Of a DNA stretch of 64,000 nt, positions 22,517 through 59,270 are shown in pieces (positions within the stretch are counted from its first letter, which is position 1; every line of letters begins with the position of its first letter). The stretch spans positions 1,824,001 through 1,888,000 of the forward strand of contig OZ242296.1 of the NCBI GenBank assembly GCA_965207735.1. Reading direction: 5' to 3'. Source of the stretch: Candidatus Versatilivorator sp. (GTDB taxonomy: Bacteria; Acidobacteriota; Terriglobia; Versatilivoradales; Versatilivoraceae). Below the pieces are notes generated by a model. It was not told the DNA's origin. It saw only the letters and a program-made list of their open reading frames with translations, and did not search any database. A program made the translations under genes and the position numbers.

Positions 22517-22524
22517 GGTTTCCC

Positions 22525-28524: not shown

Positions 28525-28547
28525 CGCTCAGCGCCAGGGAGTAGCCG

Positions 28548-29519: not shown

Positions 29520-29522
29520 ACG

Positions 29523-31141: not shown

Positions 31142-31346
31142 ATGGTGCACACTCTTGACAACCACATTGCTTCTCTCTCAGAGGGCGGAGCACTCGCCGT
31201 TGTGGTCAGAGACTTTCACGAATCGCCGCATCAGACGCGGAACGACAAGCATTTCGCGTGTCTGATGCGACAAAGCGAAGCGAGGCTATGCCGCGCGTGT
31301 GCCCCCCTCGCTTGGCGCGGCGGCGCGCCGCACGAGAGGGGTGCTG

Positions 31347-31457
31347 GTGGTGGGAGCGACCCCCATATTTTGGCCGCTGATGCGCCACGGGGCAGGGGTA
31401 GGTTATTCATGCCTTTATTCATCCTTTTCCCCTGCCTCTGGAGGTCGCTCCCACCAC
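31347..31457. repeat. Perfect 15-bp inverted repeat (oriT or structured-element candidate)
   Basis: GTGGTGGGAGCGACC (31347-31361) / GGTCGCTCCCACCAC (31443-31457), with an inner GGCAGGGG/CCCCTGCC stem. Confidence 0.7.
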
Positions 31458-31483
31458 AGTGATCCCTTGCGGGAAGGCTGCTA

Positions 31484-33523: not shown

Positions 33524-34518
33524 GCCACGCCAGCGGCATCGAGCATCTTCGCCCGTTTCTCCCCGGCCTCGAGTCGGTCCTTGGAGATCCGGAGATTTCC
33601 GAGGTCATGATCAACGGCCCCCACGTCGTCTGGATCGAGCGGGAGGGCCGCCTGGTTACCTGCCCGGCTCCGGATCTTGACGGCGAAGCCCTGATGCGGG
33701 CCGCCATCCAGATTTGCCGGCCCCTATCGCTCGATCCGGCCAAGGTGCCGACCATCGACGCCCGGCTGGCCGACGGCTCCCGGGTTGCGGTCTGTGTGCC
33801 GCCGGCTTCGCCCGAAGTCACCATTACGGTACGGCGCTTCGGCAACCGCAGCTTTTCGGCCGAGGATCTGGTCGAGATGGGATCCTTGCCGCCGGAGTTG
33901 CTGGAGGAAATCCGCAAGACACTCGGGAGCCGTCGCAACATCCTGGTCTCCGGAGGCACCGGCTCGGGCAAGACCACGCTGCTCAACGCCTTGATTGGGT
34001 TGCTTCCCAAGGGAGAGCGCATCATCACCATCGAGGACACCCTTGAGCTTCGCGTCGATCATGGCAACGCGGTCCGCTTCGAGGCCGGCGGGCGGGAGGA
34101 TTCCCCCGTCACGATCCGCGACCTGGTGAAGCACGCGCTCAGGCACCGCCCCGACCACATCGTTGTCGGGGAGGTCCGGGGCGCTGAGGCAGCCGACCTG
34201 CTCCAGGCCCTCAACACCGGCCACGGCGGCAGCCTCACCACGGTCCATGCCAACAACTGCGAGGGAGCCCTGCAAAGGCTGGCGAGCTGCGCCATGATGG
34301 CCGAGGGCGGCCTGCCCTGGGAAGCCGTGTGCCGCAGCGTCGTCGATGGCATTTCAATGGTGGTTCACATGACGCGCCGGGAGGGGCGGCGCTACGTCGA
34401 GGATGCCATTTCGGTCGGCAGCTACTCTCTCGACAAGAAGCGGTTTACCTGGAAGCCCATCGAGTTCGAGCTCGTGTCCGGACCAACGGCTCGGGCAACA
34501 GCGGGACTTCCCTCCTGA
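33520..34518 (+). CDS. virB11: VirB11/CpaF-family secretion ATPase
   Basis: SEVMING, DARLADGSRV, GGTGSGKTT, IEDTLEL, RPDHIVVGEVRG, NTGHGG.LTTVHAN. Confidence 0.93.
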   Translation: MSHASGIEHLRPFLPGLESVLGDPEISEVMINGPHVVWIEREGRLVTCPAPDLDGEALMRAAIQICRPLSLDPAKVPTIDARLADGSRVAVCVPPASPEVTITVRRFGNRSFSAEDLVEMGSLPPELLEEIRKTLGSRRNILVSGGTGSGKTTLLNALIGLLPKGERIITIEDTLELRVDHGNAVRFEAGGREDSPVTIRDLVKHALRHRPDHIVVGEVRGAEAADLLQALNTGHGGSLTTVHANNCEGALQRLASCAMMAEGGLPWEAVCRSVVDGISMVVHMTRREGRRYVEDAISVGSYSLDKKRFTWKPIEFELVSGPTARATAGLPS

Positions 34519-40210: not shown

Positions 40211-40405
40211 ATGAAAATCGCGGAGCTTATTCGCAGACTGAAACGGGATGGGTGGGTGTTCCGGAACGTGCGCGGAAGCCATCACCAATTCGTTCACCCC
40301 GAAAAACCCGGACGAGTCACCGTGAAACACCCCAGCAAGGAGATTCCCATCGGTACTCTGCGCAACATCTATCGGCAAGCCAACTGGAAACGGGAGGACC
40401 GCTGA
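40211..40405 (+). CDS. hicA: HicA toxin
   Basis: LKRDGW...RGSHHQF.HP..PGRVTV.HP..EIPIGTL..I.RQA. Confidence 0.93.
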   Translation: MKIAELIRRLKRDGWVFRNVRGSHHQFVHPEKPGRVTVKHPSKEIPIGTLRNIYRQANWKREDR

Positions 40406-40406
40406 T

Positions 40407-40814
40407 ATGCGATACCCGGTTGTGATCCACAAAGATGTCGAGAGCGTTTACGGGGTTACCGTACCGGACCTACCTGGCTGCTGTTCGGCTGGCGAGACGC
40501 TTGAGGAAGCCGTCGAGTCTGCGCAGGAGGCCATCGCCTGCCATTTGGAGGGACTCCTCATGGATGGAGAACCGATACCTGCGACGGAATCGCTCGAAAC
40601 GCATCAAGCGAGCGATGATTACAAGGGTGGGATTTGGGCACTGGTCAATGTCGATATCTCCAAGCTGTCGAGCAAGACGAAACGGATCAACATCACGGTG
40701 CCTGCTCGCGTTCTGGCGATCCTGGACGAAGCTGCGGCGCGAGAAGGGGAAACACGGTCTGGTCTGCTCGCTCGCGCAGCGCTCAGCTACATAGAACGTC
40801 AGTCCACGGAGTAA
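40407..40814 (+). CDS. hicB: HicB antitoxin (RHH C-terminus)
   Basis: YGVTVPDLPGC.SAG.T.EEA...EAI; KRINITVP...D...TRSG.LA. Confidence 0.93.
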   Translation: MRYPVVIHKDVESVYGVTVPDLPGCCSAGETLEEAVESAQEAIACHLEGLLMDGEPIPATESLETHQASDDYKGGIWALVNVDISKLSSKTKRINITVPARVLAILDEAAAREGETRSGLLARAALSYIERQSTE

Positions 40815-41146: not shown

Positions 41147-44100
41147 ATGAAGCTTGAAGATCTCCAGGCCAACGCTGCGGTGCGCGGCATCCTGTCCGAC
41201 GGCCTTGTCACGGTGGTCAGCGTGCAGTGGTTCGGCTCCGAAGCGCTTGAGCTGACGTACAAGACACCGACGGGTAAGGTCGCTAATGAGCTCTTGTACC
41301 GTCACGACGAACCCCGGATCGAGATCGTCGAGGTCGGCCGCCCATGGAGCTTCGACGGCGACGGCGCGCTGTTCCGTCTGGTCTCCGAGGCGCAGCGGAT
41401 CCGCCTGGCGCATCTCTTCGACCCGGTGCTCGCCGTGCACACCTCGGTCGTCGAGCCATTGCCCCATCAGATCACCGCGGTCTACGAATCCATGCTGCCC
41501 CGTCAACCCCTTCGCTTTCTTCTCGCCGATGACCCGGGCGCCGGCAAGACGATCATGGCGGGGTTGCTCATCAAGGAGTTGATCGCTCGCGGGGATCTGC
41601 AGCGGTGTCTGATCGTCTGTCCCGGCAGTCTCGCAGAGCAATGGCAGGATGAGCTTTACCGCCGGTTCCAGTTGCCCTTCGACATCCTGACGAACGACAA
41701 GCTCGAAGCCGCGCACACGGGAAACTGGTTCCTGGAAGCCAATCTCGTCATTGCCCGGCTGGATAAGCTCTCTCGCAACGAAGACGTTCAGCAGAAGCTG
41801 CAGGTTCCGGATTGCCGCTGGGATCTCGTCGTGTGCGACGAGGCGCATAAGATGTCGGCGACGTTCTTCGGTGGTGAAGTCAAGTACACGAAGCGCTACC
41901 GGTTGGGGCAACTGCTGTCGAGTCTCACCCGTCATTTCCTGTTGATGACGGCCACGCCGCATAACGGAAAAGAGGAAGACTTTCAGCTCTTTATGGCGCT
42001 TATCGACGGGGACCGATTCGAGGGGCGCTTTCGCGATGGCGTGCATGCCGCCGATGTCTCGGACCTGATGCGGCGCATGGTGAAAGAGAATTTGCTCAAG
42101 TTCGACGGCAGACCGCTATTCCCGGAGCGCATTGCCCACACGGTGCCCTACACCCTCTCCGAGGCGGAAGCCCGCCTTTACAAGGTCGTCACCGCCTACG
42201 TACGCGAGGAATTCAACCGTGCCGAGGCGCTTGAGAACGAACAGCGGGCCGGCGCCATCGGCTTCGCCCTGACGATTCTGCAGCGCCGGCTCGCCTCTTC
42301 ACCGGAGGCCATCTATCAGTCGTTGCGCCGCCGCCGCGAGCGTCTGGAGAGCCGGCTGCGTGAGCTCGAGGTGCTGCAGCGTGGCGGGCAGGCCCCCATC
42401 GCGTTAACGACCGCCGGGCCGGGGCTTGACGCCGAGGATGTCGAGGATCTGGACGAGGCTCCCGAGGACGAAGTCGAGACGGCCGAGGAGGAAATTCTTG
42501 ACCGGGCGACGGCGGCGCGCTCCATCGCGGAGCTGAAGGCTGAGATTGAGACGCTCAAGAATCTGGAAGGTCTTGCGCTTGAAGTGCGGCGCATCGGTGC
42601 GGACACCAAATGGCGAGAGCTGGCAAGCCTGCTCGGTGAAATCTTCACAGCCGGCGGGTTGGCCGGCCGGATCGCGGAACCGGATGTCCCTTACGGCGCG
42701 GGTGAGATCCCGCCCCCAAAATCCTCTCCCCGCCAGAAAATCGTCATCTTCACAGAGCATCGGGACACGCTGAGTTATTTGCACGATCGGATTACGACCT
42801 TGCTGGGGCGCGTGGATGCCGTGGTTCTGATTCACGGCAGCATGGGCCGCGAGGATCGACTCAAGGCCCAAGAGGCCTTCCGCCACGACCCGCACGTGCA
42901 GGTGCTGCTCGCCACGGATGCCGCCGGCGAAGGCATCAACCTGCAACGCGCCCACCTGATGGTGAACTACGATCTGCCCTGGAACCCCAACCGATTGGAG
43001 CAGCGGTTCGGCCGGATTCACCGCATCGGCCAGACCGAAGTGTGTCACCTCTGGAACCTCGTCGCGGATGAAACCAGGGAGGGCGACGTCTATCGCAAGC
43101 TCCTCGACAAGTTGGAGCAAGCGCGGCACACCCTGGGCGGGCAGGTGTTCGATGTGCTCGGCAAGCTCCACTTCGAGGGGCGGCCCCTCCGCGAGCTCCT
43201 GGTCGATGCCATCCGCTACGGCGAACAACCGGAGGTTCGAGCGCGCCTCACGACGGCGGTCGATCATGCCCTGGACCGCGGCAGGCTCCAGGACCTGCTG
43301 GAAGAGCGCGCTCTCGCGCACGACGCCATGGACGCGAGCCAAGTCCACCGAATACGCGAGGAAATGGAGCGGGCCGAAGCCCGCCGTCTACAACCGCACT
43401 ACATCGAATCGTTCTTTCGGGAGGCGTTCCAACGCTTGGGCGGTTCCGCCAAGCAGCGTGAGATGCATCGCTACGAGATCACCCACGTTCCTGCACCGGT
43501 TCGAAATCGAGACCGATTGATTGGGATTGGAGACCCGGTCCTTCTCCGGTACGAGCGCATCGCCTTCGAGAAATCCCTGGTGGCGCCCCAAGGACAGCCG
43601 CTGGCGGCGTTCGTGTGTCCCGGGCACCCCTTGCTGGATGCGGTCATCGACCTGACGCTGGAACGGCACCGCGATCTCCTGAAACGGGGCGCAGTGCTGG
43701 TCGACGAGCGGGACGAGGGCGACAAGCCGCGTGTGCTCTTCTTTCTGGAGCACGCGCTCCAGGATGCGAGCCTGACGCGCTCGGGAGATCGTCGGGTCGT
43801 CTCCAAGCGCATGCTGTACGTGGAACTGGATGCGGACGGCATGACCCGCCATGTCCACTATGCGCCCTACCTCGACTATCGGCCGCTCGCTGAAGACGAT
43901 CCCGGCCTGGAAGAAATCCTCGAGCGGCCGCAATGCGCCTGGATCGACCAGGACATGGAAAGGAAGGCGCAGGGCTACGCCGTTGCGAACGTGGTCCCGG
44001 AGCATCTGGCGGAGGTGCGCGATACGAAGTTGGCGTTGATTGCCAAGACCGAAGTGGCTGTCAAGGATCGCCTCACCAAGGAAATCACCTACTGGGATCA

Positions 44101-44725
44101 TCGCGCCGAGCAACTCAAACTGCAGGAGCAGGCGGGCAAGACCGGGGCGCGTCTGAATTCAGGCGAGGCCCGCAAGCGCGCGGATACGCTGCAAGCACGT
44201 CTCCAGAAGCGCCTTGCGGAACTCAGGCTCGAAGCGCAAATCTCGCCGCTCCCCCCGGTGGTGCTGGGAGGATTGCTGGTCGTGCCCAAGGGGCTCATCG
44301 ATGCAATGAACGGGCGTGGGCCGGCGGATGCAAGAACGGCCGTCGATACACAGGAATCGGCCGCCCGGGCGCGCAACATCATCATGGAGGTTGAGCGAAG
44401 CCTTGGGTTTGACCCGACCGACCGGGAGTTCGAGAAACTGGGGTACGACATCGAGAGCCGCGTGCCGAAGACGGGCAAGCTTCGATTCATCGAGGTCAAG
44501 GGCCGGGCCACCGGCGCGTCAACGGTCACCGTCACTCGCAACGAGATTCTGTACTCCCTGAACAAGCCCGAGGACTTCATCCTCGGGATCGTCGAATTCG
44601 TTGACGGAACAGACCACCGAGTCCACTATGTTCGTCAGCCTTTCCAGCGCGAGCCGGATTTCGGTGTGACCAGTGTAAACTATGACTTCGCGGAGCTACT
44701 TGCGCGGGGGGGGAAGCCGTCATAA
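41147..44725 (+). CDS. SNF2-family helicase with C-terminal DUF3883 (PD-(D/E)XK) nuclease domain
   Basis: LLADDPGAGKT, DEAH, TATPH, EGINLQ, PWNP.RLEQRFGRIHR; C-terminal GYDIES...FIEVKG; RBS AGGAG. Confidence 0.92.
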   Translation: MKLEDLQANAAVRGILSDGLVTVVSVQWFGSEALELTYKTPTGKVANELLYRHDEPRIEIVEVGRPWSFDGDGALFRLVSEAQRIRLAHLFDPVLAVHTSVVEPLPHQITAVYESMLPRQPLRFLLADDPGAGKTIMAGLLIKELIARGDLQRCLIVCPGSLAEQWQDELYRRFQLPFDILTNDKLEAAHTGNWFLEANLVIARLDKLSRNEDVQQKLQVPDCRWDLVVCDEAHKMSATFFGGEVKYTKRYRLGQLLSSLTRHFLLMTATPHNGKEEDFQLFMALIDGDRFEGRFRDGVHAADVSDLMRRMVKENLLKFDGRPLFPERIAHTVPYTLSEAEARLYKVVTAYVREEFNRAEALENEQRAGAIGFALTILQRRLASSPEAIYQSLRRRRERLESRLRELEVLQRGGQAPIALTTAGPGLDAEDVEDLDEAPEDEVETAEEEILDRATAARSIAELKAEIETLKNLEGLALEVRRIGADTKWRELASLLGEIFTAGGLAGRIAEPDVPYGAGEIPPPKSSPRQKIVIFTEHRDTLSYLHDRITTLLGRVDAVVLIHGSMGREDRLKAQEAFRHDPHVQVLLATDAAGEGINLQRAHLMVNYDLPWNPNRLEQRFGRIHRIGQTEVCHLWNLVADETREGDVYRKLLDKLEQARHTLGGQVFDVLGKLHFEGRPLRELLVDAIRYGEQPEVRARLTTAVDHALDRGRLQDLLEERALAHDAMDASQVHRIREEMERAEARRLQPHYIESFFREAFQRLGGSAKQREMHRYEITHVPAPVRNRDRLIGIGDPVLLRYERIAFEKSLVAPQGQPLAAFVCPGHPLLDAVIDLTLERHRDLLKRGAVLVDERDEGDKPRVLFFLEHALQDASLTRSGDRRVVSKRMLYVELDADGMTRHVHYAPYLDYRPLAEDDPGLEEILERPQCAWIDQDMERKAQGYAVANVVPEHLAEVRDTKLALIAKTEVAVKDRLTKEITYWDHRAEQLKLQEQAGKTGARLNSGEARKRADTLQARLQKRLAELRLEAQISPLPPVVLGGLLVVPKGLIDAMNGRGPADARTAVDTQESAARARNIIMEVERSLGFDPTDREFEKLGYDIESRVPKTGKLRFIEVKGRATGASTVTVTRNEILYSLNKPEDFILGIVEFVDGTDHRVHYVRQPFQREPDFGVTSVNYDFAELLARGGKPS

Positions 44726-44850
44726 GAGGAAGGAACAAAGAAACGCTCCTATCTGGGCGTCGGGCTGGCGATATTATCGCCAGCGGGGTTATGCAGCGAT
44801 GGCTAAGGTCAGCGCTGCGAATTTTCAACGACGCATCCACTATTAACTCG

Positions 44851-44925
44851 CATTGCAGGTTCGTCGAAGTCGCTCACCCGCTCGATGCCATGACCAAGGA
44901 ATCTGTCCAGAAGCAACCGTTCCGG
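44851..44925 (+). pseudogene. Relic 5' end of a DUF1156 methyltransferase gene
   Basis: HCRFVEVAHPLDAMTKESVQKQPFR aligns by eye with [26 protein letters not shown] at the start of the intact gene at 48990. Confidence 0.65.
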
Positions 44926-44977
44926 TCCTGGCTCGACAGGCTTCCAGCAAGCGGCCTGTACCAACATGAGGTGCCCC

Positions 44978-47680
44978 GTGGCTGCCGATGATGTGATCAC
45001 CAAGGCAAGGGAACTCCCGAACGGCGCGGTGTTCCATCGTTGCGCGCTTCAGGTGAACCCTCACCACTACGATTCCATGTACCGGGGCAGCGCACCTTCC
45101 GGCGATGCTGTCGTTCACGCCGGGGCAATCGTTCAGAAAGCGTCGGACCTCGGCGTCTCCGTGCTCGCCATTACCGACCACAACCATGTCGGCGGCGTCG
45201 CCGCGTTCCGCGCCGCCGCCGAAGGACGTGGCATCCACATCTTTCCCGGCTTCGAGTTGTCGTCGAGCGAGGGTATTCACGTTCTGTGCATCTATGCCCC
45301 CGACACCGCGGACGACCTCCTCGCGCGCTACCTGGGCGGGTTCGGCATCAACGACCCGGAGCCCTCAGCCAGGTTGGCTGACAAGACCTTTGTGGACATC
45401 CTCGCCAAGGTAGGCGAGCAGGGCGGTGTCGCGATTGCTGCCCACGTGACCAACAATAGAGGGCTACTCAAGGTCCTCACCGGTCAGGCGCGCATCCAGG
45501 CGTGGCGGAGTGGGGACTTGCTGGCGATCCAGATTCCCGGCCCCGTTGCCGAATTGCCCCACGGCATGAAGCAAATCGTGGAGAACACGAACCCCGACTA
45601 CCGGCGCGACCCTGCCGCCAAGGATGGGCTCGCCATCGCGGTCGTCTACGCGAAGGACATCGCCAAGCCCGAAGACCTCGACGATCGCTCGGCCACCTGC
45701 TGGATCAAGATGTCAGAGGTGACGATCGAGGGGCTGCGCCAAGCCTTTCTGGATCCCGGCTCGCGCATCCGCAATCCCAAGGAAGGCAAGCTGGAGCCAG
45801 AGGAGCACGCCGAGCTCGTCGCGCTCTCCTGGGAGGGAGGATTTCTCGACGGTGCCGCTATCCACTTCAATCCGAACCTCAACGTCCTGGTCGGGGGCCG
45901 CGGGACCGGCAAGTCGACCGTGATCGAGAGCATCCGCACGGTGTTGGGCCTCGAGGCCATCGGCGACGAGGCGAGTAGGGCCCACCATGGCATCATCCGC
46001 CACGTCCTAAAGAACGGGACCAAGATTTCGCTCCTGGTCCGCGCCCATCGCCCGGCGGTTCGTGAGTACCGCATCGAGCGCACAATCCCGAATCCGCCGC
46101 TGGTCCGGGACGATCATGGCGAGGTGTCCAATCTCTCGCCCCAGGACGTGTTGCCGCGCGTCGAGGTCTTCGGCCAGCACGAGATCTCGGAGCTGACCAA
46201 GAGCCACGAGAAGCAGACCCGCCTGCTCGACCGCTTCGTCGATCGCGATGACGACCTCCCGCGCAAGAAGGCCGACCTGCGCCGCGCGCTGGAGAAGAGC
46301 CGCAAGAGCCTGCTCGACACGCGCGCCGAGTTGGCACAGATCGAGGAGCGCCTGGCAGCGCTTCCGGGCCTCGAAGAGACGCTGGAGCGCTTTCGTGAAG
46401 CCGGGCTCGAGGATCGGCTCAAGGAGCAGAGCCTGCTCGTGCGGGAGGAGCGACTGCTTGCCTCCATTCCGGACCGCCTCGCATCATTCCGCGAATGTCT
46501 CGAGACCCTGAAGCGCGAGGTCCCGATGGACCATGTGTTCCTCTCTGCAAAGGCTCTCGAGGATCTGCCCGGGAAGAAGATCTTGCAGCGCCTGAACGGC
46601 GTCTTCAAAACGCTCGACCTCGAACTCCAGCGAATCGCGAAGGACCTGGAGCAGGCGCTGGCGCGCGCCGACGAGGGTGTCGCCCTGGTGCGCACCGAGT
46701 GGGAGACGCGCAAGAAAGATGTCCAAGAGGTCTACGAGAAGATCCTCCGCGAACTGCAGAAGTCGCGCGTGGACGGCGAGGAGTTTATCCGCCTGCGGCG
46801 GCAGATCGAGGAACTGCGGCCTTTGCGCGAGCGGCAGGCCTCAGCCCGGCGCACCGAGAAGGAGCACGCCGACCGCCGCCGCAGCCTACTGGCGGAGTGG
46901 GAGGACTTCAAGGCGCAGGAGTTCCGACGCTTGGACGGCGCGGCGAAGAGAGTCAACAAGAAGCTCCGCGATCGGGTACAGGTGGAGGTGACCGCGGCAG
47001 GCGACCGCGAGCCGCTGTGCAACCTCCTCCGGGAGAAGGTTGGCGGGCGATTGTCCGAAGCGATCGAAATCCTCCGGGGCGTTCGCGATCTCTCCCTCAC
47101 TCGGTTCGTCGAGGCCTGCCGTTCCGGCGCGGAGGCGCTGAACAAGACATTCGGCATCACGACAGCCCAGGGTGAGCGCCTCGCCAAGGCTGAGCCCGAG
47201 GTGCTGATGCGCGTCGAGGAACTCGACCTGCCCCCGACGACCGCGATCCGACTCAATACGGCTCCCGCCGGGGAGCCCCCGGCGTGGCAGGCGCTCAACA
47301 ATGGCCTCTCCACCGGCCAGAAGGCCACCGCGGTCCTGCTCCTGCTGCTGCTCGAGTCCGAAGCGCCGCTCATCGTCGATCAACCGGAGGACGATCTCGA
47401 CAACCGCTTCATCACCGAGGGCGTCGTCCCGCGCATGCGCGAGGAGAAGCAACGCCGGCAGTTCCTTTTTTCGACCCACAACGCCAACATCCCGGTACTC
47501 GGTGATGCCGAGCTGATCGTTGGCCTTTCCGCCACTGGCGAGGCCGAGCACGGCCGCGCGCGCATCGCCCCTGAGCACATGGGCTCGATCGACGCCAAGC
47601 CCGTGCGCGAGCTGGTCGAGGAGATCCTCGAAGGCGGGAAGGAAGCCTTCGAGCGCCGGCGCCGGAAGTACGGGTTTTGA
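44978..47680 (+). CDS. PHP-domain + SMC/ABC-like ATPase (TrlF/Ppl-like)
   Basis: AITDHN, GFE...IHVL; Walker A GGRGTGKS, long coiled coil, signature LSTGQ, Walker B IVDQPEDDLD, STHN. Confidence 0.88.
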   Translation: MAADDVITKARELPNGAVFHRCALQVNPHHYDSMYRGSAPSGDAVVHAGAIVQKASDLGVSVLAITDHNHVGGVAAFRAAAEGRGIHIFPGFELSSSEGIHVLCIYAPDTADDLLARYLGGFGINDPEPSARLADKTFVDILAKVGEQGGVAIAAHVTNNRGLLKVLTGQARIQAWRSGDLLAIQIPGPVAELPHGMKQIVENTNPDYRRDPAAKDGLAIAVVYAKDIAKPEDLDDRSATCWIKMSEVTIEGLRQAFLDPGSRIRNPKEGKLEPEEHAELVALSWEGGFLDGAAIHFNPNLNVLVGGRGTGKSTVIESIRTVLGLEAIGDEASRAHHGIIRHVLKNGTKISLLVRAHRPAVREYRIERTIPNPPLVRDDHGEVSNLSPQDVLPRVEVFGQHEISELTKSHEKQTRLLDRFVDRDDDLPRKKADLRRALEKSRKSLLDTRAELAQIEERLAALPGLEETLERFREAGLEDRLKEQSLLVREERLLASIPDRLASFRECLETLKREVPMDHVFLSAKALEDLPGKKILQRLNGVFKTLDLELQRIAKDLEQALARADEGVALVRTEWETRKKDVQEVYEKILRELQKSRVDGEEFIRLRRQIEELRPLRERQASARRTEKEHADRRRSLLAEWEDFKAQEFRRLDGAAKRVNKKLRDRVQVEVTAAGDREPLCNLLREKVGGRLSEAIEILRGVRDLSLTRFVEACRSGAEALNKTFGITTAQGERLAKAEPEVLMRVEELDLPPTTAIRLNTAPAGEPPAWQALNNGLSTGQKATAVLLLLLLESEAPLIVDQPEDDLDNRFITEGVVPRMREEKQRRQFLFSTHNANIPVLGDAELIVGLSATGEAEHGRARIAPEHMGSIDAKPVRELVEEILEGGKEAFERRRRKYGF

Positions 47681-47691
47681 GGAGCGGTGCG

Positions 47692-48993
47692 ATGAACCGA
47701 ACCGAGCTGGAAGAGCTGATCCGCAACGGCGAGAACTCGGGCGTCGAGTTCAAGCGTGACGATGTCGTTCCTGAGCGACTTGCCAAGGAGTTGGCGGCGC
47801 TGCTGAACCTGGAGGGGGGGCATCTCCTCCTCGGCGTTGAAGATGACGGCACCGTTACGGGTTTGACCCGCGAACCGAAGCAGGTCGAGGAATGGATCAT
47901 GGAGGTCGCGCGTGTCCACCTTCGCCCGGCGGCCATTCCGTTCTGGGAGACCCTGACGCTGGACGATGGAAATGTCGTCGGAGTCATCTCGCTTCCCGCC
48001 GACGCGCCGGACAAACCCTACAAGGCCAAGCGCGGAACGGCGTGGATGACGCAGGTTCGGGTGGGCACGACCACCCGCGATGCGACGGACGCAGAGGAAG
48101 CGCGCCTCTACATGCAGTCCGGGCACCTACAGTACGACCGCAAGCCGATTCCCGGCGCGACGATTGACGACCTCGACTTGCGACGCCTGGTGAACTACTT
48201 CCGTGACTTGCGCCAGCAAGGGGCCCCAGAGTACACAGACATCGAGTCCTGGCTCCGCCTGCTGGTCAACACAGAGTTGATGGTCGAGGACCACACCCGG
48301 CCAATGCCGAGCGCGGGCGGGCTGCTGCTGTTCGGCCTGAAGCCAAACCGCTTCCTCCCCCAGGCCGGAATCAGCGCAGTGGCCTACTCCGGCGCTAAGA
48401 AGGACTATGACGCAAAGGCCCGAGCGACGCTACGAGGGCCCGCAGTGTCCCTGTTCCCAGCCCCGTCGGACGATCCCGGGCAGCCGCTCTACCCCCTGCT
48501 GCCACGTGCTTTTTCCGAAGCTGGCAACGCCGGCAACGCCGTTGAAGCTGGCGTCATCGAGCAAGCCCTCGACTTCGTGTGCCGCAACATCGAAATGACC
48601 GCCTGGATCGAGAACGGTGGGCGGCGCCTGGAGCGCTGGGACTACCCGCTCGAAGCCGTGCGCGAAGCGCTGGTTAACGCGGTCGCGCACCGCGACTACA
48701 CCATCACCGTGACCGACATCGAGCTTTCCATCTACACCGACCGGATCGAGATCATCTCTCCCGGGCGCCTCCCGAACACGGTCACCGTCGACAAGATGCG
48801 GGCCGGATACCGCGCCTCGCGCAACGAGTTGATCAAGGAGGTGCTGCGCGACTACCGCTACATCGAAGCCACCGGCCTTGGAGTGCCGCGCAAGATCATA
48901 GACGGGATGCGCACGCACAATGGCACCGAGCCTGACCTCATCGAAGAGGATGATCGCTTTTTGGTGCGCCTGTGGAAGGAAGCGAGATCGTGA
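47692..48993 (+). CDS. AlbA_2 (Schlafen-like) domain + HATPase_c_4 domain protein
   Basis: [25 protein letters not shown]; [23 protein letters not shown]. Confidence 0.88.
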
Positions 48994-51992
48994 CCCACCT
49001 GAAGAAACTCATTGAAGTCGCCTTGCCGCTTGACGCGATCAACACGGCCTCGGCCAGGGAGAAGTCCATCCGCCACGGCCACCCAAGCACACTGCACCTT
49101 TGGTGGGCGCGTCGACCGCTGGCGGCAGCCCGGGCGGTGATTTTCGCGCAGATGGTGGATGATCCGTCCGAATATGTCGACGTGCTGCTCTCGGACCCCA
49201 AGCAGAAAAGGGCCGCGGAGCGGGAATTGAAGAAACGCCTCGCGGCGCACGCGGCGAAGCGCTCACTGGCCCGCGACGACGCGATCGCCGAAGCTCGGCC
49301 GACGCTGGAAGAGGTCATCGCCGAGCAAGAGCGCGACCGGCTATTCGCGATTATCGAAGACTTGGTTCTTTGGGAGAACACCACGAACGAAGAGGTGCTC
49401 GAACGGGCGCGGCGAGAGATCTGGCAGAGTTGGCGGCGGGCGTGCGCGAAGAATGCGGCCCATCCGAGAGCCACGGATATTTTCGATCGGCAAAAGCTCC
49501 CGGCTTTTCACGATCCGTTTGCGGGCGGAGGAGCGCTCCCGCTGGAGGCGCAACGGCTGGGGCTGGAAGCCCATGCCAGCGACCTCAACCCGGTGGCGGT
49601 GCTGATCAACAAGGCCATGATCGAAATTCCACCGAAATTCGCTGGCGAGGCACCTGTGAATCCGGAGTCTCGCCAGGAAAAGAGACTGATCGAGCGCGAC
49701 TGGACTGGGGCGCAGGGACTGGCCGAAGATGTGCGCTATTACGGGCAGTGGATGCGCGACGAGGCGGAGAACCGCATTGGGCACCTATATCCCAAGGTCG
49801 AGGTCACCGAGAAGATGGTCGCAGAGCGGCCTGACCTGGAACGCTACAAGGGCCGCAAGCTGACGGTGATTGCGTGGCTGTGGGCGCGGACGGTGAAAAG
49901 CCCCAACCCCGCCTTTGCCGATGTCGAGGTGCCGCTGGCGTCCACCTTTATGCTCTCGACCAAAAAGGGCAAAGAAGCGTACGTCGAGCCGGTGATCGAG
50001 GACAAAGAGTACCAGTTCACGGTTAAGGTAGGCGAGCCGCCGGACGTGGCGACGACGAAGACGGGGACGAAGCTGTCCCGCGGCGCTAACTTCCGGTGCC
50101 TGATGTCCGGGACGCCAATTGCGCCCGACTACATCAAAGCCGAAGGCATGGCCGGACGCATGGATGCACGGCTGATGGCGATCGTGGCCGAAGGTGATCG
50201 TGGTCGGGTCTATCTCAATCCGACTACGCAGATGGAAGAAACGGTGCAGACGAAAGAGACAGTATGGAAACCAGAGCAGCCGCTTCCCGATAATCCCAGG
50301 TGGTTTTCCCCTCCAGATTATGGAATGCCAACCTTCGGCGACCTCTTCACTAGCCGCCAACTCGTCGCCCTGACGACCTTCTCGGACCTAGTGGCGGAGG
50401 TGCGTGCGCGGGTGGAGCGTGACGCCATCGTTGCTGGCCTTTCCGACGACAGCACGCCTCTGCGCCATGGCGGCACCGGCGCCACGGCATATGCAGAGGC
50501 TGTTTCAGTGTATTTGGCGTTTGCAGTGGATTACGCGGCTAATTATTGGTCGGTAATTGCGACGCCAGCGGATGGTTTTATCCGGGGCACGTTCGCACGA
50601 CAAGCCCTACCGATGACCTGGGATTTTGCGGAGGCTCCTCCGTTCGGTAATACCAGTGGCAACTGGCTTGGAGGAATCGAATGGATTTCGAAAGTGCTTG
50701 ATTTGTTGCCCTGCATGACTCTTGGCCACGAAGCAACGGGCCTTCAGGCCGATGCAGCACGCCAGACATACAGCTTGAATTCAATTATTTCCACAGACCC
50801 ACCCTATTACGACAACATTGGTTACGCGGACCTGTCCGATTTTTTTTACGTCTGGTTGCGTCGGGTGCTGAAGCCAGTATTCCCAGAGTTGTTTGCGACC
50901 GTGGCTGTGCCGAAGGCGGAGGAACTGGTAGCCAGCCCTTACCGCCACGGCAGCAAGACGCAAGCAGAAACCTTCTTCCTGCATGGCATGACCCAAGCGA
51001 TGCGCCGCCTGTCCGAACAGGCCCATCCCGGATTTCCAGTCACCATCTACTACGCCTTCAAGCAGGCCGAGACGAAAGGGGGCGAGGGCACTGCCAGCAC
51101 CGGTTGGGAGACCTTCCTCGACGCCGTGATCGCGGCCGGTTTCTCGGTCACCGGCACTTGGCCGATGCGCACTGAGCGCGGCGGGCGCATGATTGACATC
51201 GGGACCAACGCCCTCGCCTCCAGCATCGTCCTGGTCTGCCGCCAGCGCCCTGCGGATGCCCCGATGGCCACTCGCCGGGAGTTCGTTGCGGCCCTCAAAT
51301 CTGCATTGCCAGTGGCCCTGACTCACCTGCAGCGCGCCAACATCGCACCGGTTGATCTGGCGCAGGCGGCCATCGGCCCGGGAATGGCGGTCTATACCCG
51401 CTACGCCAAGGTGCTCGACGCCACGGGCAAGGCTCTCCCGGTGCGCGATGCACTGGCGCTCATCAACCACACCCTCGACGAGGCGTTGGCCGAACAGGAG
51501 GGCGACTTCGACGCCGACAGCCGCTGGGCGCTCGCCTGGTTCGAGCAGTTTGGCTTCGACAAAGGCGAATACGGCATCGCCGAAATGCTCTCCAAGGCCA
51601 AGAACACCAGCGTCGCGGGCATGGTGGATGCGGGTATTCTGGCCTCAAAAGGCGGGACGGTCCGGCTGCTGAGGCCCGAGGAACTACCTCCGGATTGGGA
51701 CCCAACGACCGACCCGAGGCTGACCGGTTGGGAGATGGTGCATCATCTCGTACGAGCACTGGAGGCCAGCGGCGAGAACGCCGCGGCCGAACTTGCTGCC
51801 CCACTCGGCGCCAAGGCCGAGGCGGCTCGCGAGTTGTGCTACCGTCTGTACACGTTATGCGACCGCAAGAAACGCACGGCGGCGGCACTCTCCTACAACA
51901 GCCTGGTGCAGAGTTGGCCCGAGATCAGCCGCTTGGCCCAAGAAGTCGGCCGCCACGGTGCCAAGCAGTCTGGACTTTTCGGGGAGGATTAG
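48990..51992 (+). CDS. DUF1156-containing amino (likely N6-adenine) DNA methyltransferase
   Basis: [27 protein letters not shown] (SAM binding), TDPPYYDN (catalytic), TWPMRTE, NALASSI; GTGA overlap with the upstream gene. Confidence 0.93.
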
Positions 51993-51994
51993 CC

Positions 51995-53185
51995 ATGCAT
52001 GTCGAATCCATAAAGCTAAAAAACTTCAAGAGTTTCAAAGAGGTGACGATGCTGGATATTCCGCACTATTGCGTAATCGTCGGCGCCAACGGAACGGGAA
52101 AAAGTACTCTTTTCGATGTTTTTGGATTCCTCAAAGATTGCCTGACCTACAATGTCCGGCAGTCCCTGCAAGTTCGTGGGGGCTATGCCGAAGTCGTAAG
52201 TAGAGGGGATACCGGCGGGGCCCCAATCGAATTGGAGATTCAGTTTCGTATGGAAATATCTGGGGTCAACCGTCTTGTGACCTATGTTGTTCATATTGGC
52301 CAGGAAAAAAACAGACCGGTGGTGGCCCGGGAAATACTCCGCTACAAACGCGGCCGTTATGGATCACCGTTTCATTTTCTGGACTTCGCGCAGGGCAACG
52401 GCTATGCCATAACGAACGAAGAGGATTTCGACAAACCAGATGAAGAACTGACCCGCGAATATCAGTCGGTCGCCCGGGATGTGCTGGCCATAAAGGGACT
52501 GGGGCAGTTTGAACGCTTCAAGGCGGCCAGCGTCTTTCGACAGTTAATTGAAAACTGGCACGTCTCCGATTTCCACATCAACCTTGCGCGCGGCAGTAAG
52601 GACGCCGCAGGCCCGAACGAGCATCTCTCCGTTACAGGAGACAACCTCCAGTTGGTGGCACAAAATATCCTCGAAAGCTCACCCGACACCTTCGAGAGAA
52701 TTGTCGAGGCAACGAAAAGGCGCATCCCCGGCATAGATGAAATCGTACCCGTCTCTACACCGGACGGCAGGCTCTTGCTGAGATTCAGGGACGGCGCTTT
52801 TGCCAATCCGTTCATCGACAAATATGTATCCGACGGCACCATCAAGATGTTCGCCTATCTGATTCTTCTCTACGACCCCGAACCCCATCCCCTGCTGTGT
52901 ATCGAGGAACCGGAGAATCAGTTGTATCCTGACCTGCTGAGCGAATTAGCGGAAGAATTCCGGTCCTATGCCGACCAGGGAGGTCAGGTTTTTGTCTCGA
53001 CTCATTCGCCAGACTTTCTGAATGCCGTCGAACTCGAAGAAGTGTTCTGGCTGGTCAAGAGCGGCGGCTATACCGAAATACGGCGCGCTCGGGATGACGA
53101 GCAGATCGCCGCCTACATGGCCGATGGCGACAAAATGGGGTATTTGTGGCGACAGGGATTTTTTGAGGGGGCCGATCCTCAATGA
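51995..53185 (+). CDS. AAA_21/ABC-type ATPase
   Basis: NFKSF, GANGTGKS, SDGT signature, IEEPEN, STHS. Confidence 0.92.
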   Translation: MHVESIKLKNFKSFKEVTMLDIPHYCVIVGANGTGKSTLFDVFGFLKDCLTYNVRQSLQVRGGYAEVVSRGDTGGAPIELEIQFRMEISGVNRLVTYVVHIGQEKNRPVVAREILRYKRGRYGSPFHFLDFAQGNGYAITNEEDFDKPDEELTREYQSVARDVLAIKGLGQFERFKAASVFRQLIENWHVSDFHINLARGSKDAAGPNEHLSVTGDNLQLVAQNILESSPDTFERIVEATKRRIPGIDEIVPVSTPDGRLLLRFRDGAFANPFIDKYVSDGTIKMFAYLILLYDPEPHPLLCIEEPENQLYPDLLSELAEEFRSYADQGGQVFVSTHSPDFLNAVELEEVFWLVKSGGYTEIRRARDDEQIAAYMADGDKMGYLWRQGFFEGADPQ

Positions 53186-53751
53186 ATCAATTGGTCTTTT
53201 TTCTTGAGGAGCCCTCAGCGCGAGAAATGTTAAAGAACCTTCTCCCCCGAATCCTGCCCGATTACGTAACGGTTCGCTACGTGGTGTTTGAGGGCAAACA
53301 GGATCTGGAGAATCAGCTTGGACGAAAACTGCGTCGCTGGCGCGTGCCCGATACCCGCTTTGTTGTCATGCGGGACAAGGATCAAGCGGACTGTCTCACA
53401 GTCAAGTGCCGTTTGGTCCGGATTTGTCGGGATGCTGGAAAGCCGGACGTGCTGGTCCGAGTTCTTTGCCATGAATTGGAAAGCTGGTACCTCGGAGATT
53501 TGAACGCTGTTGAGCAAGGACTTCAAATAGCTGGACTGGGCCGGAAACAGGAACAATCAAGATACCGAAGCCCTGACCGGATTGCCAATCCCGTGCAGGA
53601 ATTACGAAGGCTCACACGAGACAGGTATCAAAAAATCGACGGCTCCCGGGCCGTCGGCCCCCACCTATCGCTGGATGGAAATCGATCCCATAGTTTCACG
53701 GTGTTCGTGTCTGGCCTCCGGCGTCTTGTTCAGAGCTGTACCGGTGGTTGA
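53182..53751 (+). CDS. DUF4276-family (TOPRIM-like) protein
   Basis: FFLEEPS, FEGK.DL, MRDKD, ELESWYLGD, YQK, NRSHSF; ATGA overlap with the ATPase. Confidence 0.82.
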   Translation: MNQLVFFLEEPSAREMLKNLLPRILPDYVTVRYVVFEGKQDLENQLGRKLRRWRVPDTRFVVMRDKDQADCLTVKCRLVRICRDAGKPDVLVRVLCHELESWYLGDLNAVEQGLQIAGLGRKQEQSRYRSPDRIANPVQELRRLTRDRYQKIDGSRAVGPHLSLDGNRSHSFTVFVSGLRRLVQSCTGG

Positions 53752-53791
53752 AACATTCATGCAATTCGGAGCGAAATAGGATAGGAGGGAT

Positions 53792-56700
53792 ATGGCCACG
53801 ACCAATCACGAGCGGGTCGGCAAGGCACTGGATTTGCTCAAAACGGGCCTGGGCCCGTTTGTCGACCGTGAAGTCCAAGGCGCCCTGGAGTCGCGAAAAT
53901 TGGCCGCCCGCCGATTGCGCGACTACGGGGAAGATCGCGCGTTGGGGAGCAAGCCGATCCTCGAGTGGGACGTGGCCGGGCTGCTGAAGCTGATGTGGGA
54001 TACCTGGCACGAAGTCTTCCGTGAGATTCTGGGGCGGGCGGAGCGGAGTCTGGTCAGCGAATTGCGCGACCACCGCAACAAGTGGGCACACCAGGAGAGT
54101 TTTTCCAGCGATGACGCCTATCGCGCTCTGGATTCGGTGGGGCGACTCCTTGCCGCGGTATCCGCGCCGCAGTCCGAAGAGCTCGAGAAGCGCAAGCTGG
54201 AACTGCTGCGGGTACGCTTCGACGAACAGACCCGCGGAGAACGGCGCAAGCAGTCGGGAACGGCGATTGAAAGCGCCGCCGCGGCCAGACTGACGCCCTG
54301 GCGGGAAATCGTCACCCCTCACAGGGACGTCGCGAGCGGGGGATACCAGCAAGCCGAGTTCGCCGCCGATCTCTGGCAGGTCCATCTGGGTGAAGGCACC
54401 GATGAGTATCGAGACCCCGTCGAGTTCTTCCGGCGCACCTATCTGACGGAAAGCCTGAAGGGGCTGTTGGTTGGGGCAATACGCCGCCTCGCGGGCAGAG
54501 GAGGCGACCCCGTCGTTCAGCTCCAGACGAACTTCGGCGGTGGCAAGACCCACTCCATGCTGGCCCTGTATCACCTGTTCTCCGGGACAGCCTCCGCGGA
54601 ACTGGATGGGATCGACCGCGCTTTGCTGGAGGCGGAGGCCACGAAACTTGGGGAGGCGCGCCGCGTCGTGCTGGTTGGAAACAAGATCTCTCCAGGGAAC
54701 CCGGTCGCCAAGCCGGATGGCACCCTCGTCCGAACGCTCTGGGGCGAGCTGGCGTGGCAACTGGGCGGCAAGAGGGCGTTCGCGCGCATCGCGGCCGACG
54801 ACGAAAAGGCAACGAGTCCAGGCGATGCACTGCGGGAACTCTTCAATGAATATGGTCCCTGCCTGATCCTCATCGATGAGTGGGTTGCCTACGCCCGCCA
54901 GCTGCATGACCAGAGCGACCTGCCCGCCGGAGGCTTCGAGACCCAGTTCAGTTTTGCCCAGGTGCTCACGGAATCGGCCAAACTCGCCAACAACTGCCTG
55001 CTCGTGATCAGCTTGCCGGCCTCGGACACGACCGGGTCCCCCCACACCCAGGCGGACGATGTTGAGGTCGGTGGGCAACGCGGGCGGGAGGCACTCGATC
55101 GTTTGCGGAACGTCGTCGGGCGCATCGAATCGTCCTGGCGTCCGGCCAGTGCCGAGGAAAGCTTCGAGATTGTACGGCGCCGCCTTTTCGAGCCGTTCAC
55201 AGATCCTGTCCAATTCAGGGACAGGGATGTGGTCGCCCGCGCATTTGCCGAGTTCTATCGGACGCAGCATCAAGAGTTCCCGCCTGAGTGTCGAGACGCA
55301 GACTACGAGAAGCGGATCAAGGCGGCCTATCCCATACACCCCGAGATCTTCGATCGCCTGTACACGGATTGGTCGACGCTGGTGAAATTCCAGCGCACGC
55401 GTGGCGTGTTGCGGTTGATGGCGGCCGTGATTCACAGCCTGTGGGAGAAAGACGACAGGAATCCGCTGATTCTGCCGGCGAACATAGCGATCGACGATAC
55501 ACGCGTACAGTTCGAGCTGACCCGGTATCTCCCCGACAACTGGGTGCCGGTGATCGAGAAAGACGTGGACGGTCCCAGCTCACTGCCGCTACGGATTGAC
55601 GGCGCGGTTCCGAACCTCGGAAAGTTCCACGCTTCCAGGCGCGTCGCGCGAGCGATTTATCTCGGATCCGCTCCCACCGCCGCTGCGGCGCATCGGGGTC
55701 TTGAGGACCGCCGCGTCAAACTCGGCTGTGTCATGCCGGGGGAGTCTCCGGCTGTCTTCGGCGACGCGCTGCGGCGTTTGGCCGGCGCGGCAACCTACCT
55801 CTACCAGGATGGTCCTCGTTACTGGTACTCCACACAGCCAACCGTCACGAAGCTGGCGGAGGATCGCGCCGAGCAGCTGAAGCGGAACCCCGACAAGGTG
55901 GTGCAGGAGCTCGGTTCGCGACTCCGATCGGATCTCCGCAACACGGGCGACTTCAATCGAGTGCATCCCCTCCCGCAATCCGGGCAGGATGTTCCGGATG
56001 ACCTCGATGCACGACTCGTGGTGCTCGGAAGCGACACGCCCTACAGCAAAGAGAAGGGAAATCCCGCAGAGACCGCGGCGCAAGCCATCCTGGAATCGAG
56101 AGGTAGCGCACCAAGGATTTGTCGTAACACGCTCGTGTTTCTGGCCCCGGACAAGACGAGGCTGCAGGATCTCGATGAGGCGCTCCGGCGGCACTTGGCA
56201 TGGGAATCGATACTCGGTGAACGGGAACAGCTCGATCTTTCGCCTCACCAGGTCAAGCAGGCCGAAAACCAAAAGGAAGCGGCGTCCAGCGCGGTAACGG
56301 CCCGGCTCCCGGAGACGTTCCAGTGGCTCCTGGTTCCGGTTCAGGCCCGTCCCGAAGCTTCGATGGAGTGGCAGGCCATGAGGCTGTCGGGCCAGCACTC
56401 GCTCGCATCCAGAGCGAGCAAGAAACTGAAAGGCGATGAGCTGCTGGTGACCGGCTTTGCCGCCACTCGGCTTCGGATGGAGCTTGATCGCGTGCCTCTC
56501 TGGCGCGGCGACCATGTACCGATCAAACAAATCGTCGAGGATTTTGCGCGGTATCCCTATCTGCCCCGGGTCAGCGACCCGACGGTCCTGCTAAACGCAA
56601 TCAGCGATGGCATTGCCCTCCTTACCTGGGAACAGGATGCGTATGCGTTCGCAGAAAGCTTTGACGATGAGGCAAAACGATATCGCGGTTTACGCGGTGG

Positions 56701-57133
56701 AAAAGTTGTTTCATTGCCGGATGCGGATGCTCCCGGATTGCTCGTCAAGTCGGATATCGCGCGTCAACAGCTTGATGCCGAGAGTGCACAGCCACCGGGC
56801 GGCGGAGAAGTTGCTGGCGCAGGGACGGGTGGAGAAAGCTCGGTCCCAGGGGGAGGACCGGGTCCCGGGGAGGATCCGCCGGGCGCCCCGTCGTCGCACC
56901 CGAAGCGGTTTCATGGGACTGCTATGCTTGATTCCGCTCGGGTAGGCCGCGACGCGAGCCGGATTGCGGACGAGGTGATCGCGCATCTTTCCAGCCTGGT
57001 GGGAGCCAAGGTCACAGTGACCCTAGAAGTAGAGGCCGAGATCCCGGCCGGAGCCCCGGATCACGTTGTTCGTACGGTCACGGAGAACAGCCGGACACTG
57101 AAGTTCACAAGCCAGGGCTTTGAAAAAGAATAG
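53792..57133 (+). CDS. DUF499 AAA+ ATPase with N-terminal Swt1-like HEPN domain
   Basis: ELRDHRNKWAH (RxxxxH), L.PWRE..TPH.DV, EFAADL, FGGGKTH, LIDE, YPIHP, FQRTRGVLRL; RBS AGGAGG. Confidence 0.92.
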   Translation: MATTNHERVGKALDLLKTGLGPFVDREVQGALESRKLAARRLRDYGEDRALGSKPILEWDVAGLLKLMWDTWHEVFREILGRAERSLVSELRDHRNKWAHQESFSSDDAYRALDSVGRLLAAVSAPQSEELEKRKLELLRVRFDEQTRGERRKQSGTAIESAAAARLTPWREIVTPHRDVASGGYQQAEFAADLWQVHLGEGTDEYRDPVEFFRRTYLTESLKGLLVGAIRRLAGRGGDPVVQLQTNFGGGKTHSMLALYHLFSGTASAELDGIDRALLEAEATKLGEARRVVLVGNKISPGNPVAKPDGTLVRTLWGELAWQLGGKRAFARIAADDEKATSPGDALRELFNEYGPCLILIDEWVAYARQLHDQSDLPAGGFETQFSFAQVLTESAKLANNCLLVISLPASDTTGSPHTQADDVEVGGQRGREALDRLRNVVGRIESSWRPASAEESFEIVRRRLFEPFTDPVQFRDRDVVARAFAEFYRTQHQEFPPECRDADYEKRIKAAYPIHPEIFDRLYTDWSTLVKFQRTRGVLRLMAAVIHSLWEKDDRNPLILPANIAIDDTRVQFELTRYLPDNWVPVIEKDVDGPSSLPLRIDGAVPNLGKFHASRRVARAIYLGSAPTAAAAHRGLEDRRVKLGCVMPGESPAVFGDALRRLAGAATYLYQDGPRYWYSTQPTVTKLAEDRAEQLKRNPDKVVQELGSRLRSDLRNTGDFNRVHPLPQSGQDVPDDLDARLVVLGSDTPYSKEKGNPAETAAQAILESRGSAPRICRNTLVFLAPDKTRLQDLDEALRRHLAWESILGEREQLDLSPHQVKQAENQKEAASSAVTARLPETFQWLLVPVQARPEASMEWQAMRLSGQHSLASRASKKLKGDELLVTGFAATRLRMELDRVPLWRGDHVPIKQIVEDFARYPYLPRVSDPTVLLNAISDGIALLTWEQDAYAFAESFDDEAKRYRGLRGGKVVSLPDADAPGLLVKSDIARQQLDAESAQPPGGGEVAGAGTGGESSVPGGGPGPGEDPPGAPSSHPKRFHGTAMLDSARVGRDASRIADEVIAHLSSLVGAKVTVTLEVEAEIPAGAPDHVVRTVTENSRTLKFTSQGFEKE

Positions 57134-59256: not shown

Positions 59257-59270
59257 ATAGTGGGCATAAC
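59257..59270 (+). repeat. att site, integrase-distal (core GGGCATAAC 59262-59270)
   Basis: Direct repeat of 15464-15477; preceded by a very AT-rich stretch. Confidence 0.9.

Follow-up and report, generated by a model that had tools for sequence, protein, structure and literature searches.

The Locus and Its Integrative Conjugative Element

Seven open reading frames, all on the plus strand and free of internal stops, occupy positions 41147-57133 of the window, which is the whole stretch of 64,000 nucleotides that was analysed. They are intact, co-oriented genes, and every Pfam assignment made in the preliminary description of this DNA stands. The genes, with the evidence for each, are the following:

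41147..44725, plus strand: hmaA, Swi2/Snf2 helicase with a C-terminal NOV_C (DUF3883) PD-(D/E)xK nuclease (PADLOC HmaA, Pfam, motifs)
44966..47680, plus strand: trlF, N-terminal PHP domain and Rad50/SMC-like coiled-coil ABC ATPase (NCBIfam TrlF, structure model, motifs)
47692..48993, plus strand: trlG, Schlafen (SLFN_AlbA_2) RNase domain and GHKL-type (HATPase_c_4) domain (Pfam, Photorhabdus homologue, fold matches)
48990..51992, plus strand: hmaB, DUF1156 DNA methyltransferase of N6-adenine type (PADLOC HmaB, motifs)
51995..53185, plus strand: HEC-01 ABC ATPase (OLD-type, AAA_21), a low-G+C insert (PADLOC HEC-01 model, G+C)
53182..53751, plus strand: TOPRIM-like HEC-01 partner, DUF4276 (PADLOC HEC-01 model, sequence)
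53792..57133, plus strand: hmaC, HEPN (HEPN_Swt1) domain fused to a DUF499 AAA+ ATPase (PADLOC HmaC, Pfam, motifs)

The helicase gene is followed by a gap of 240 nt, and the remaining gaps lie between -4 and +40 nt, depending on start choice. The AAA_21 and DUF4276 genes have a G+C content of 0.525 and 0.537, against 0.62-0.655 for the other five genes and 0.619 for the genome. Counts of internal promoters and terminators in the locus were no higher than in shuffled sequence, and target-site duplications flanking either insert did not rise above the shuffled background in the window and 14 related loci.

The locus is carried as cargo by a 43.8-kb integrative conjugative element (ICE) with a defined empty site, whose junction was present in all five genomes of the same genus. 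A radical SAM gene is the target of the element; a tRNA target was ruled out, the window holding no tRNA. The principal features of the ICE are:

15464..15477, no strand: left att core, a 14-bp direct repeat with one mismatch to the right copy (empty-site junction)
15588..16889, plus strand: tyrosine integrase (Pfam Arm-DNA-bind_3, Phage_int_M, Phage_integrase)
22156..34518, plus strand: type IV secretion genes VirB3, B4, B9, B10, B6, B8, coupling protein and B11 (Pfam, NCBIfam)
36022..37581, plus strand: ArdC-family anti-restriction gene (ArdcN and MPTase-PolyVal)
40214..40814, plus strand: hicAB toxin-antitoxin pair immediately upstream of hmaA (Pfam)
59257..59270, no strand: right att core, partner of the left direct repeat

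The Scaffold Is an Hma System

The helicase, methylase and DUF499 genes match the PADLOC models HmaA (1695.7 bits, residues 1-1190), HmaB (1540.2 bits) and HmaC (1158.7 bits, residues 166-1111), with scores far exceeding those of the DrmD (398) and Gao_RL models. HmaA possesses all four nuclease residues (D1101, E1116, K1118 and E1133), matched by motif to D1084, E1104, K1106 and E1121 of Liu et al. HmaB contains the DPFAGGG and DPPY motifs of an N6-adenine methyltransferase, and HmaC has the Walker motifs of DUF499 together with the HEPN motif R95-x4-H100. The three genes lie on one strand with no more than three embedded genes per junction, the limit for Hma loci taken from Payne et al. 2024. 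These models and motifs identify the scaffold as Hma, a system already in print (Payne et al. 2021, PMC8565338; Liu et al. 2024, PMC11232893) and also described as the Type-1 BREX-related system, or Type-1 BR (PMC12839542). Locus and system share the A-B-C order, the NOV_C nuclease on the helicase, the DUF1156 methylase, the DUF499 ATPase, the HEPN fusion (reported in 1370 of 2446 taxa for Hma / Type-1 BR) and inserts at both junctions. The scaffold itself does not differ from Hma, and only the particular pair of inserts sets the locus apart.

The preliminary description had proposed a restriction-like scaffold of three genes that differs from Gao_RL, and in this it was correct. Gao_RL, or Type-2 BR, consists of DUF499, DUF3780, DUF1156 and a PLD-helicase, and shares with the locus the DUF499, DUF1156 and SNF2 families. 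A Gao_RL variant was rejected, as the NCBIfam scores of 99-187 stand against cut-offs of 1000-1200. The PLD/HKD nuclease expected at the N-terminus of the Gao_RL helicase gave no PLD Pfam match, and phospholipD_antiphage scored 158.5 against a cut-off of 1100. No DUF3780 was found by Pfam among the seven proteins, as had been noted before; a genome-wide search for DUF3780 returned zero matches, but its control matched nowhere either, and the result carries little weight. The supposed novelty of the subtype is lost with the match to characterised systems, in the scaffold as in the inserts described below. The arrangement holds nothing new; it is a further example of Hma with embedded genes.

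HEC-01 and the Exchange of Inserts

The insert between hmaB and hmaC is, by its model matches, HEC-01: the ATPase scores 705.1 bits over residues 1-396 and the DUF4276 partner 271.7 bits (PADLOC), the latter bearing E9/E10 and D65-x-D67, acidic residues of TOPRIM type. Like HEC-01, it is an ABC ATPase and TOPRIM (DUF4276) pair embedded in Hma, and no difference was found. In E. coli, a HEC-01 representative gave no defence in a single published test (Payne et al. 2024, bioRxiv 10.1101/2024.01.29.577857).

Inserts are exchangeable among Hma scaffolds, near-identical ones included. In a relative with HmaA 93% and HmaC 91% identical (L014) the hmaB-hmaC junction is empty, in another at 90% (L002) it holds SIR2-HerA, a third (L115) carries PDC-M45 as an insert, and in a fourth (L116) hmaA is followed by an OLD nuclease. 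The junctions are insertion hotspots, as had been suggested, and embedded inserts are published for 931 of 1485 Hma loci (Payne et al. 2024). The idea of hotspots and the analogy to PrrC had already been put forward by Payne et al. 2024 and Liu et al. 2024.

TrlF and TrlG

The insert between hmaA and hmaB is, by family score and domain content, TrlF-TrlG, the temperature-restriction pair of Photorhabdus. Its first protein scores 512.9 bits with the NCBIfam TrlF model NF045780 (cut-off 350). The second has the Pfam domains published for TrlG, AlbA_2 and HATPase_c_4, and is 40% identical to a protein of a Photorhabdus sp., the comparison being with that protein and not with P. laumondii TrlG itself. 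A new HEC number was considered and set aside: no HEC or PDC model fits, but the insert is TrlF-TrlG, and no model of PADLOC 2.0 covers the two as a pair.

The Temperature Restricting Locus (TRL; Hapeshi et al. 2020, PMC7554251) has the same succession of a TrlF-family gene over the cut-off and an AlbA_2 and HATPase_c_4 gene. In Photorhabdus it lies between polA and dsbA, whereas here the pair lies inside Hma. The 79-aa regulator trlR, which is conserved in few genera only, has no counterpart upstream of trlF: the longest plus-strand frames in the 240-nt gap are 38-66 aa. Heat-induced growth arrest by TRL is known only for P. laumondii; loss of trlG relieves the arrest, the selection yielded no trlF mutants, and phage are not mentioned in that paper. 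It was also the only report of the pair found in the literature searched for TrlF-TrlG as a defence system; the pair may be listed in Krishnan et al. 2020, Gao et al. 2020, Xu et al. 2026, or the supplementary material to Payne et al. 2024 and PMC12839542.

TrlF shares its architecture, a PHP domain and a Rad50-like ABC ATPase, with Ppl, a validated single-gene defence protein that acts alone and is reported as embedded in Halomonas Hma loci (Liu et al. 2024). It differs from Ppl in falling below the Ppl cut-off (193.2 bits against 1000, NCBIfam), in its altered PHP metal motifs and in having a Schlafen gene as partner. The metal site is remodelled, with QxN for HxH and DI/DV for DxH, and three canonical histidines are missing from the clade that holds the TrlF of the locus, so the exonuclease activity of Ppl may not carry over. 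The idea that the PHP ligands were lost as TrlG became the effector was rejected, because some QxN TrlF have a trlG partner and others do not, and TrlF with the canonical HxH are found paired with trlG as well. A sequence search found no solved structure of a TrlF relative; the structure model (pLDDT 85.7) has fold matches to SMC, JetC, LmuB and PHP.

TrlG carries the motif E14-x4-E19-x-K21, of the form E-x4-(E/D)-x-K reported for prokaryotic Schlafens and present in 77 of 81 TrlG. Its fold matches DIP2311, SLFN11/14 and SAMD9. Two of seven Schlafens tested in E. coli were protective, neither of the kinase-fused type.

Distribution and Linkage of the Pair

TrlF exceeds the cut-off in only 14 of 301 genomes of a phylum sample, a patchy spread, and copies at 90% identity or more occur across phyla; no match was found in phage genomes at 1e-20. 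The gene trlG directly follows trlF in 73 of the 78 closest loci, and behind 9 of the 15 full-length TrlF genes of the phylum sample. Order is fixed and spacing near zero down to 25% identity. Over 81 pairs, the identities of TrlF and TrlG co-vary (r 0.84; best of 999 permutations 0.27). The link is not obligate: trlG is absent from seven of the nine plasmid TrlF regions inspected, and among the 11 closest TrlG of the phylum sample four lack a neighbouring trlF, one of the four with only 2.8 kb of upstream contig. These solitary TrlG weaken the notion of TrlF as an obligatory antitoxin. All four plasmid TrlG matches adjoin trlF.

The pair is found in four unrelated scaffolds and at either junction. 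Besides Hma, it lies between hsdS and hsdR in a type I restriction-modification (RM) locus, between pglX and pglZ in BREX, and inside a Gao_RL-type locus (L024). Many TrlF copies stand among housekeeping genes, and 36 of the 52 loci with full flanks have no DUF1156 or DUF499 gene (Hma B/C) within about 9 kb.

Proposed Function and Alternatives

The most plausible account, which we hold with reasonable confidence, is that of an ICE-borne Hma trio with HEC-01 and TrlF-TrlG at its two junctions, together providing layered anti-phage defence. HmaB would mark self DNA with N6-methyladenine, HmaC would scan, and HmaA would attack phage DNA, with the HEPN domain of HmaC as a possible last-resort RNase. 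Anti-phage activity is known only for the Halomonas HmaA homologue, whose nuclease nicks supercoiled DNA and which alone blocks T4; overexpression of HmaB had no effect on T4 (Liu et al. 2024). Each insert would be a self-standing module of ATPase sensor and nuclease, hitch-hiking on the operon rather than wired to Hma. TrlF-TrlG is likely a back-up anti-virus module, in which TrlF, by analogy to its relative Ppl, might respond to DNA ends or to a loss of nucleotides, and TrlG would cleave tRNA and halt growth. As the two genes turn up side by side in Hma, type I RM and BREX loci and in housekeeping regions, the temperature restriction seen in Photorhabdus is probably the misfiring of an abortive-infection module.

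The preliminary description had the inserts guarding Hma. In such a model they would be tied to it physically or functionally and fire only once a phage inhibitor disables Hma, as PrrC does with EcoprrI. The position of the inserts within the operon, the copy in the hsdS-hsdR slot and the back-up roles proposed by Payne et al. and the BREX survey are in its favour. The inactivity of HEC-01 when tested alone counts in favour of the model and also, as the one published test, against a guard role. Guarding is nevertheless unsupported, because TrlF-TrlG so often stands without Hma, in many cases among housekeeping genes. The pair also enters four unrelated scaffolds and either junction, and PrrC, unlike this pair, was classed by Payne et al. 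as almost always embedded. We regard this as the least probable of the alternatives. Only slightly less improbable is a growth stop under heat or DNA stress, unconnected with phage, the pair residing in Hma only as such loci tolerate insertions. The sole experiments on the pair concern heat-induced arrest, the Rad50/SMC fold of TrlF is of DNA-repair type, and the housekeeping surroundings of many copies would fit. Yet the patchy spread, the high identity across phyla and the recurrent insertion into RM, BREX, Hma and Gao_RL-type operons are characteristic of genes for defence, and the related Ppl is a proven defence protein.

It is also conceivable, though still unlikely, that TrlF and TrlG are two single-gene defences merely inherited together. 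Each is found without the other, Ppl works alone, and the Photorhabdus selection gave no trlF mutants; the fixed order, the close spacing and the plasmid TrlG matches speak against it.

A wider reading, to which we would give somewhat less than an even chance, makes TrlF-TrlG a widespread and so far unrecognised two-gene abortive-infection system, in which the ends of phage DNA or a drop in nucleotides would be perceived by the Rad50-like ATPase, its PHP site remodelled, and this would release the Schlafen-GHKL RNase to cleave tRNA of the host. Such a system would move between phyla and settle in operons of Hma, type I RM, BREX and Gao_RL, with the Photorhabdus restriction as its misfiring under heat. 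It would also provide the trigger still lacking for some of the most frequent class of bacterial Schlafens, the kinase-like fusions.

The value of the locus is that it draws attention to TrlF-TrlG. Should the pair prove to defend against phage, a puzzling heat phenotype would be tied to immune misfiring, and a partner would be at hand for the Schlafen-kinase-type proteins, roughly one half of all bacterial Schlafens (34.0% + 19.2%).

Identity of the locus

The seven-gene locus at window 41147-57133 is an Hma system that carries HEC-01 and the TrlF-TrlG pair, all of which are already known. The remaining lead is that TrlF-TrlG may be a defence module. As the preliminary description had it, all seven genes (hmaA, trlF, trlG, hmaB, the AAA_21 and DUF4276 genes of HEC-01, and hmaC) are present on the + strand, with the domains it named and without internal stops. 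Their intergenic distances lie between -4 and +40 nt, except for 240 nt 3' of the helicase gene. PADLOC scores the scaffold proteins, over nearly their full length, at 1696 (HmaA), 1540 (HmaB) and 1159 bits (HmaC), whereas its Gao_RL models reach only 100, 81 and 158 bits on the window proteins, which rules out a Gao_RL variant. The NCBIfam Gao_RL families likewise score far under cut-off. The proposed distinct three-gene subtype is thus rightly set apart from Gao_RL, but it is not new, being the system named Hma by Payne et al. 2021 (PMC8565338).

A 2026 survey describes Hma as Type-1 BREX-related and counts 2446 taxa, of which 1370 have the HEPN-DUF499 fusion and 1921 the fusion of helicase to nuclease; the Type-2 BREX-related systems are set apart by DUF3780 and an N-terminal HKD nuclease (PMC12839542). 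Work on Halomonas by Liu et al. 2024 (PMC11232893) showed that HmaA blocks T4 by itself and nicks supercoiled DNA through its NOV_C domain; no effect of HmaB on T4 was seen. Window HmaA retains D1101, E1116, K1118 and E1133, matching the residues of the homologue; HmaB retains DPFAGGG and DPPY, and HmaC retains R95-x4-H100 and the Walker motifs. By analogy, the trio is most likely a restriction-modification-like or helicase-nickase defence, in which HmaA would nick DNA, as its homologue does, and the trio would presumably also methylate and scan it. HmaA homologues occur in 16 of 61 genomes, its own included, and in 5 of 13 within the same genus. In two same-genus loci (L113 and L114, from genomes G008 and G013) Hma is rearranged: hmaA-hmaC comes first, and hmaB follows at a distance, either inverted or present twice.

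Insertion hotspot and HEC-01

The suggestion that the Hma junctions are insertion hotspots is borne out, since inserts differ among the related loci compared here, and it is already in print: Payne et al. 2024 (bioRxiv 10.1101/2024.01.29.577857) found 931 of 1485 Hma systems to hold inserts, and they take up the analogy with PrrC. The hmaB-hmaC junction is empty in the related locus L014 (HmaA 93%, HmaC 91% identity), holds SIR2-HerA in L002 (90% identity) and PDC-M45 in L115, and a further locus, L116, has an OLD nuclease 3' of hmaA. In the window this junction holds HEC-01 (PADLOC model scores 705 and 272 bits), which gave no defence in the E. coli test described by Payne et al. 2024. The G+C of its AAA_21 (0.525) and DUF4276 (0.537) genes, against 0.62-0.655 for the other five genes and 0.619 for the genome, points to a recent and separate arrival of the pair. 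On an archaeal plasmid (L085, 5989-10475), TrlF-family and DUF262 genes lie reversed between the DUF499 and DUF1156 genes.

The TrlF-TrlG insert

The 904-aa protein of the first insert passes the NCBIfam cut-off for TrlF (512.9 against 350) and falls short of that for Ppl, the single-gene PHP-ATPase defence (193.2 against 1000). Its predicted structure (pLDDT 85.7) combines a PHP barrel with an SMC/Rad50-like coiled-coil ATPase. In its clade the PHP site is altered, QxN replacing HxH and DV/DI replacing DxH, with D71, H72, E97, H105 and H160 retained, and the alteration is seen both with and without trlG. In the 433-aa protein, a Schlafen domain bearing E14-x4-E19-x-K21 is combined with one of GHKL type. 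The published TrlG has both of these Pfam domains, and a Photorhabdus sp. protein shares 40% identity with the window's protein.

In Photorhabdus laumondii the two genes make up the Temperature Restricting Locus: trlG carried a lesion in 20 of the 29 heat-tolerant clones that were sequenced, with substitutions in both domains, and no lesion was seen in trlF; the word "phage" is absent from the main text of that paper (Hapeshi et al. 2020, PMC7554251). Liu et al. 2024 list a PHP-ATPase and AlbA_2/HATPase pair, MCA3009-3010, in their Table S7 but do not comment on it. We found no statement of TrlF-TrlG as defence in the literature searched, including passages of bioRxiv 10.1101/2025.09.30.679545, but Krishnan et al. 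2020 and two supplement sets may list the pair. In the 2026 survey, Schlafen-kinase proteins already figure as back-up effectors close to loci of this type, in at least 1017 taxa (PMC12839542).

Linkage and independence of the pair

Among the best 80 of 509 TrlF relatives, a set skewed to close relatives, trlG lies directly 3' of trlF in 73 of 78 loci; the five exceptions are a contig end, an intervening IstB-type element, a Schlafen gene further down and two absences. Across 301 genomes sampled from the phylum, 14 have a match over the cut-off for TrlF, and 9 of 15 full-length non-own trlF genes have an adjacent trlG (six of 21 matches, partial, broken or unrecovered, were left out). The reverse search found 11 non-own TrlG loci above 400 bits, six right behind trlF, one a gene further on and four without trlF; among weaker loci 2 of 18 adjoin it. 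On plasmids, trlG accompanies trlF in 2 of 9 regions viewed out of 237 records, one pair between hsdS and hsdR and the other between pglX and pglZ, and all four TrlG matches adjoin trlF. Identities of TrlF and TrlG co-vary (r 0.84 over 81 pairs; best of 999 permutations 0.27), which indicates co-inheritance rather than binding. A strict two-part system is opposed by the solitary trlF and solitary trlG genes.

The inserts had also been proposed to guard Hma, a role opposed by the many Hma-free copies of TrlF-TrlG. A DUF1156 or DUF499 gene neighbours the pair, at either junction, in 28 of 78 loci (16 of 52 with full flanks), and the remaining loci often sit amid housekeeping genes (89 neighbouring ORFs, 35 of 36 such loci scanned). 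Of the close copies, 13 have no intact Hma next to them, and eight of these retain 44-179 bp of the hmaB start, so the eight came out of Hma loci. By record title, copies of at least 90% amino-acid identity fall in Vicinamibacterales, Bryobacterales, Latescibacterota, Longimicrobiales, Pseudomonadales and Spirochaetia.

The inserts are most likely self-standing sensor-nuclease modules. TrlF might sense DNA ends and nucleotide loss, as summarised for Ppl (PMC12904381, PMC13648713), and TrlG might cleave tRNA in the manner of bacterial Schlafens, two of seven of which protected E. coli when tested, neither of them kinase-fused (bioRxiv 10.1101/2025.07.24.666596).

The host element

The 43.8-kb integrative conjugative element (ICE) that carries the locus also has an integrase and genes for type IV secretion, together with ArdC and HicAB. 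It is bounded by a 14-bp direct repeat, and its site is empty in all five same-genus genomes tested. The ICE interrupts a radical SAM gene just past the CxxxCxxC motif; a same-genus genome with the empty site has this gene intact, so the two parts of the window copy would be joined again by excision. Features in and around the element are:

14391-14586 and about 59525-59875, dispersed non-coding repeats of ~100-200 bp
14633-15477 and 59257-59463, - strand, interrupted radical SAM gene
36022-37581, ArdC-family anti-restriction gene, in the same ICE, 3.5 kb upstream of its restriction-like locus
57590-57690, - strand, Tn3-family transposase scrap 3' of hmaC, weak Pfam match
57942-59039, 365-aa ORF, low G+C (0.51), right end of the ICE

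The 365-aa ORF has no Pfam, PADLOC or NCBIfam match, and its closest Atlas clusters are unnamed hypothetical proteins; it is possibly a further cargo defence gene. The dispersed repeats have well over 100 copies in their own genome and many in same-genus genomes. When window 15000-57200 is compared with the genome, several copies related to hicAB and to portions of the ICE backbone are seen at other places on the same chromosome, suggesting that it holds more such elements.
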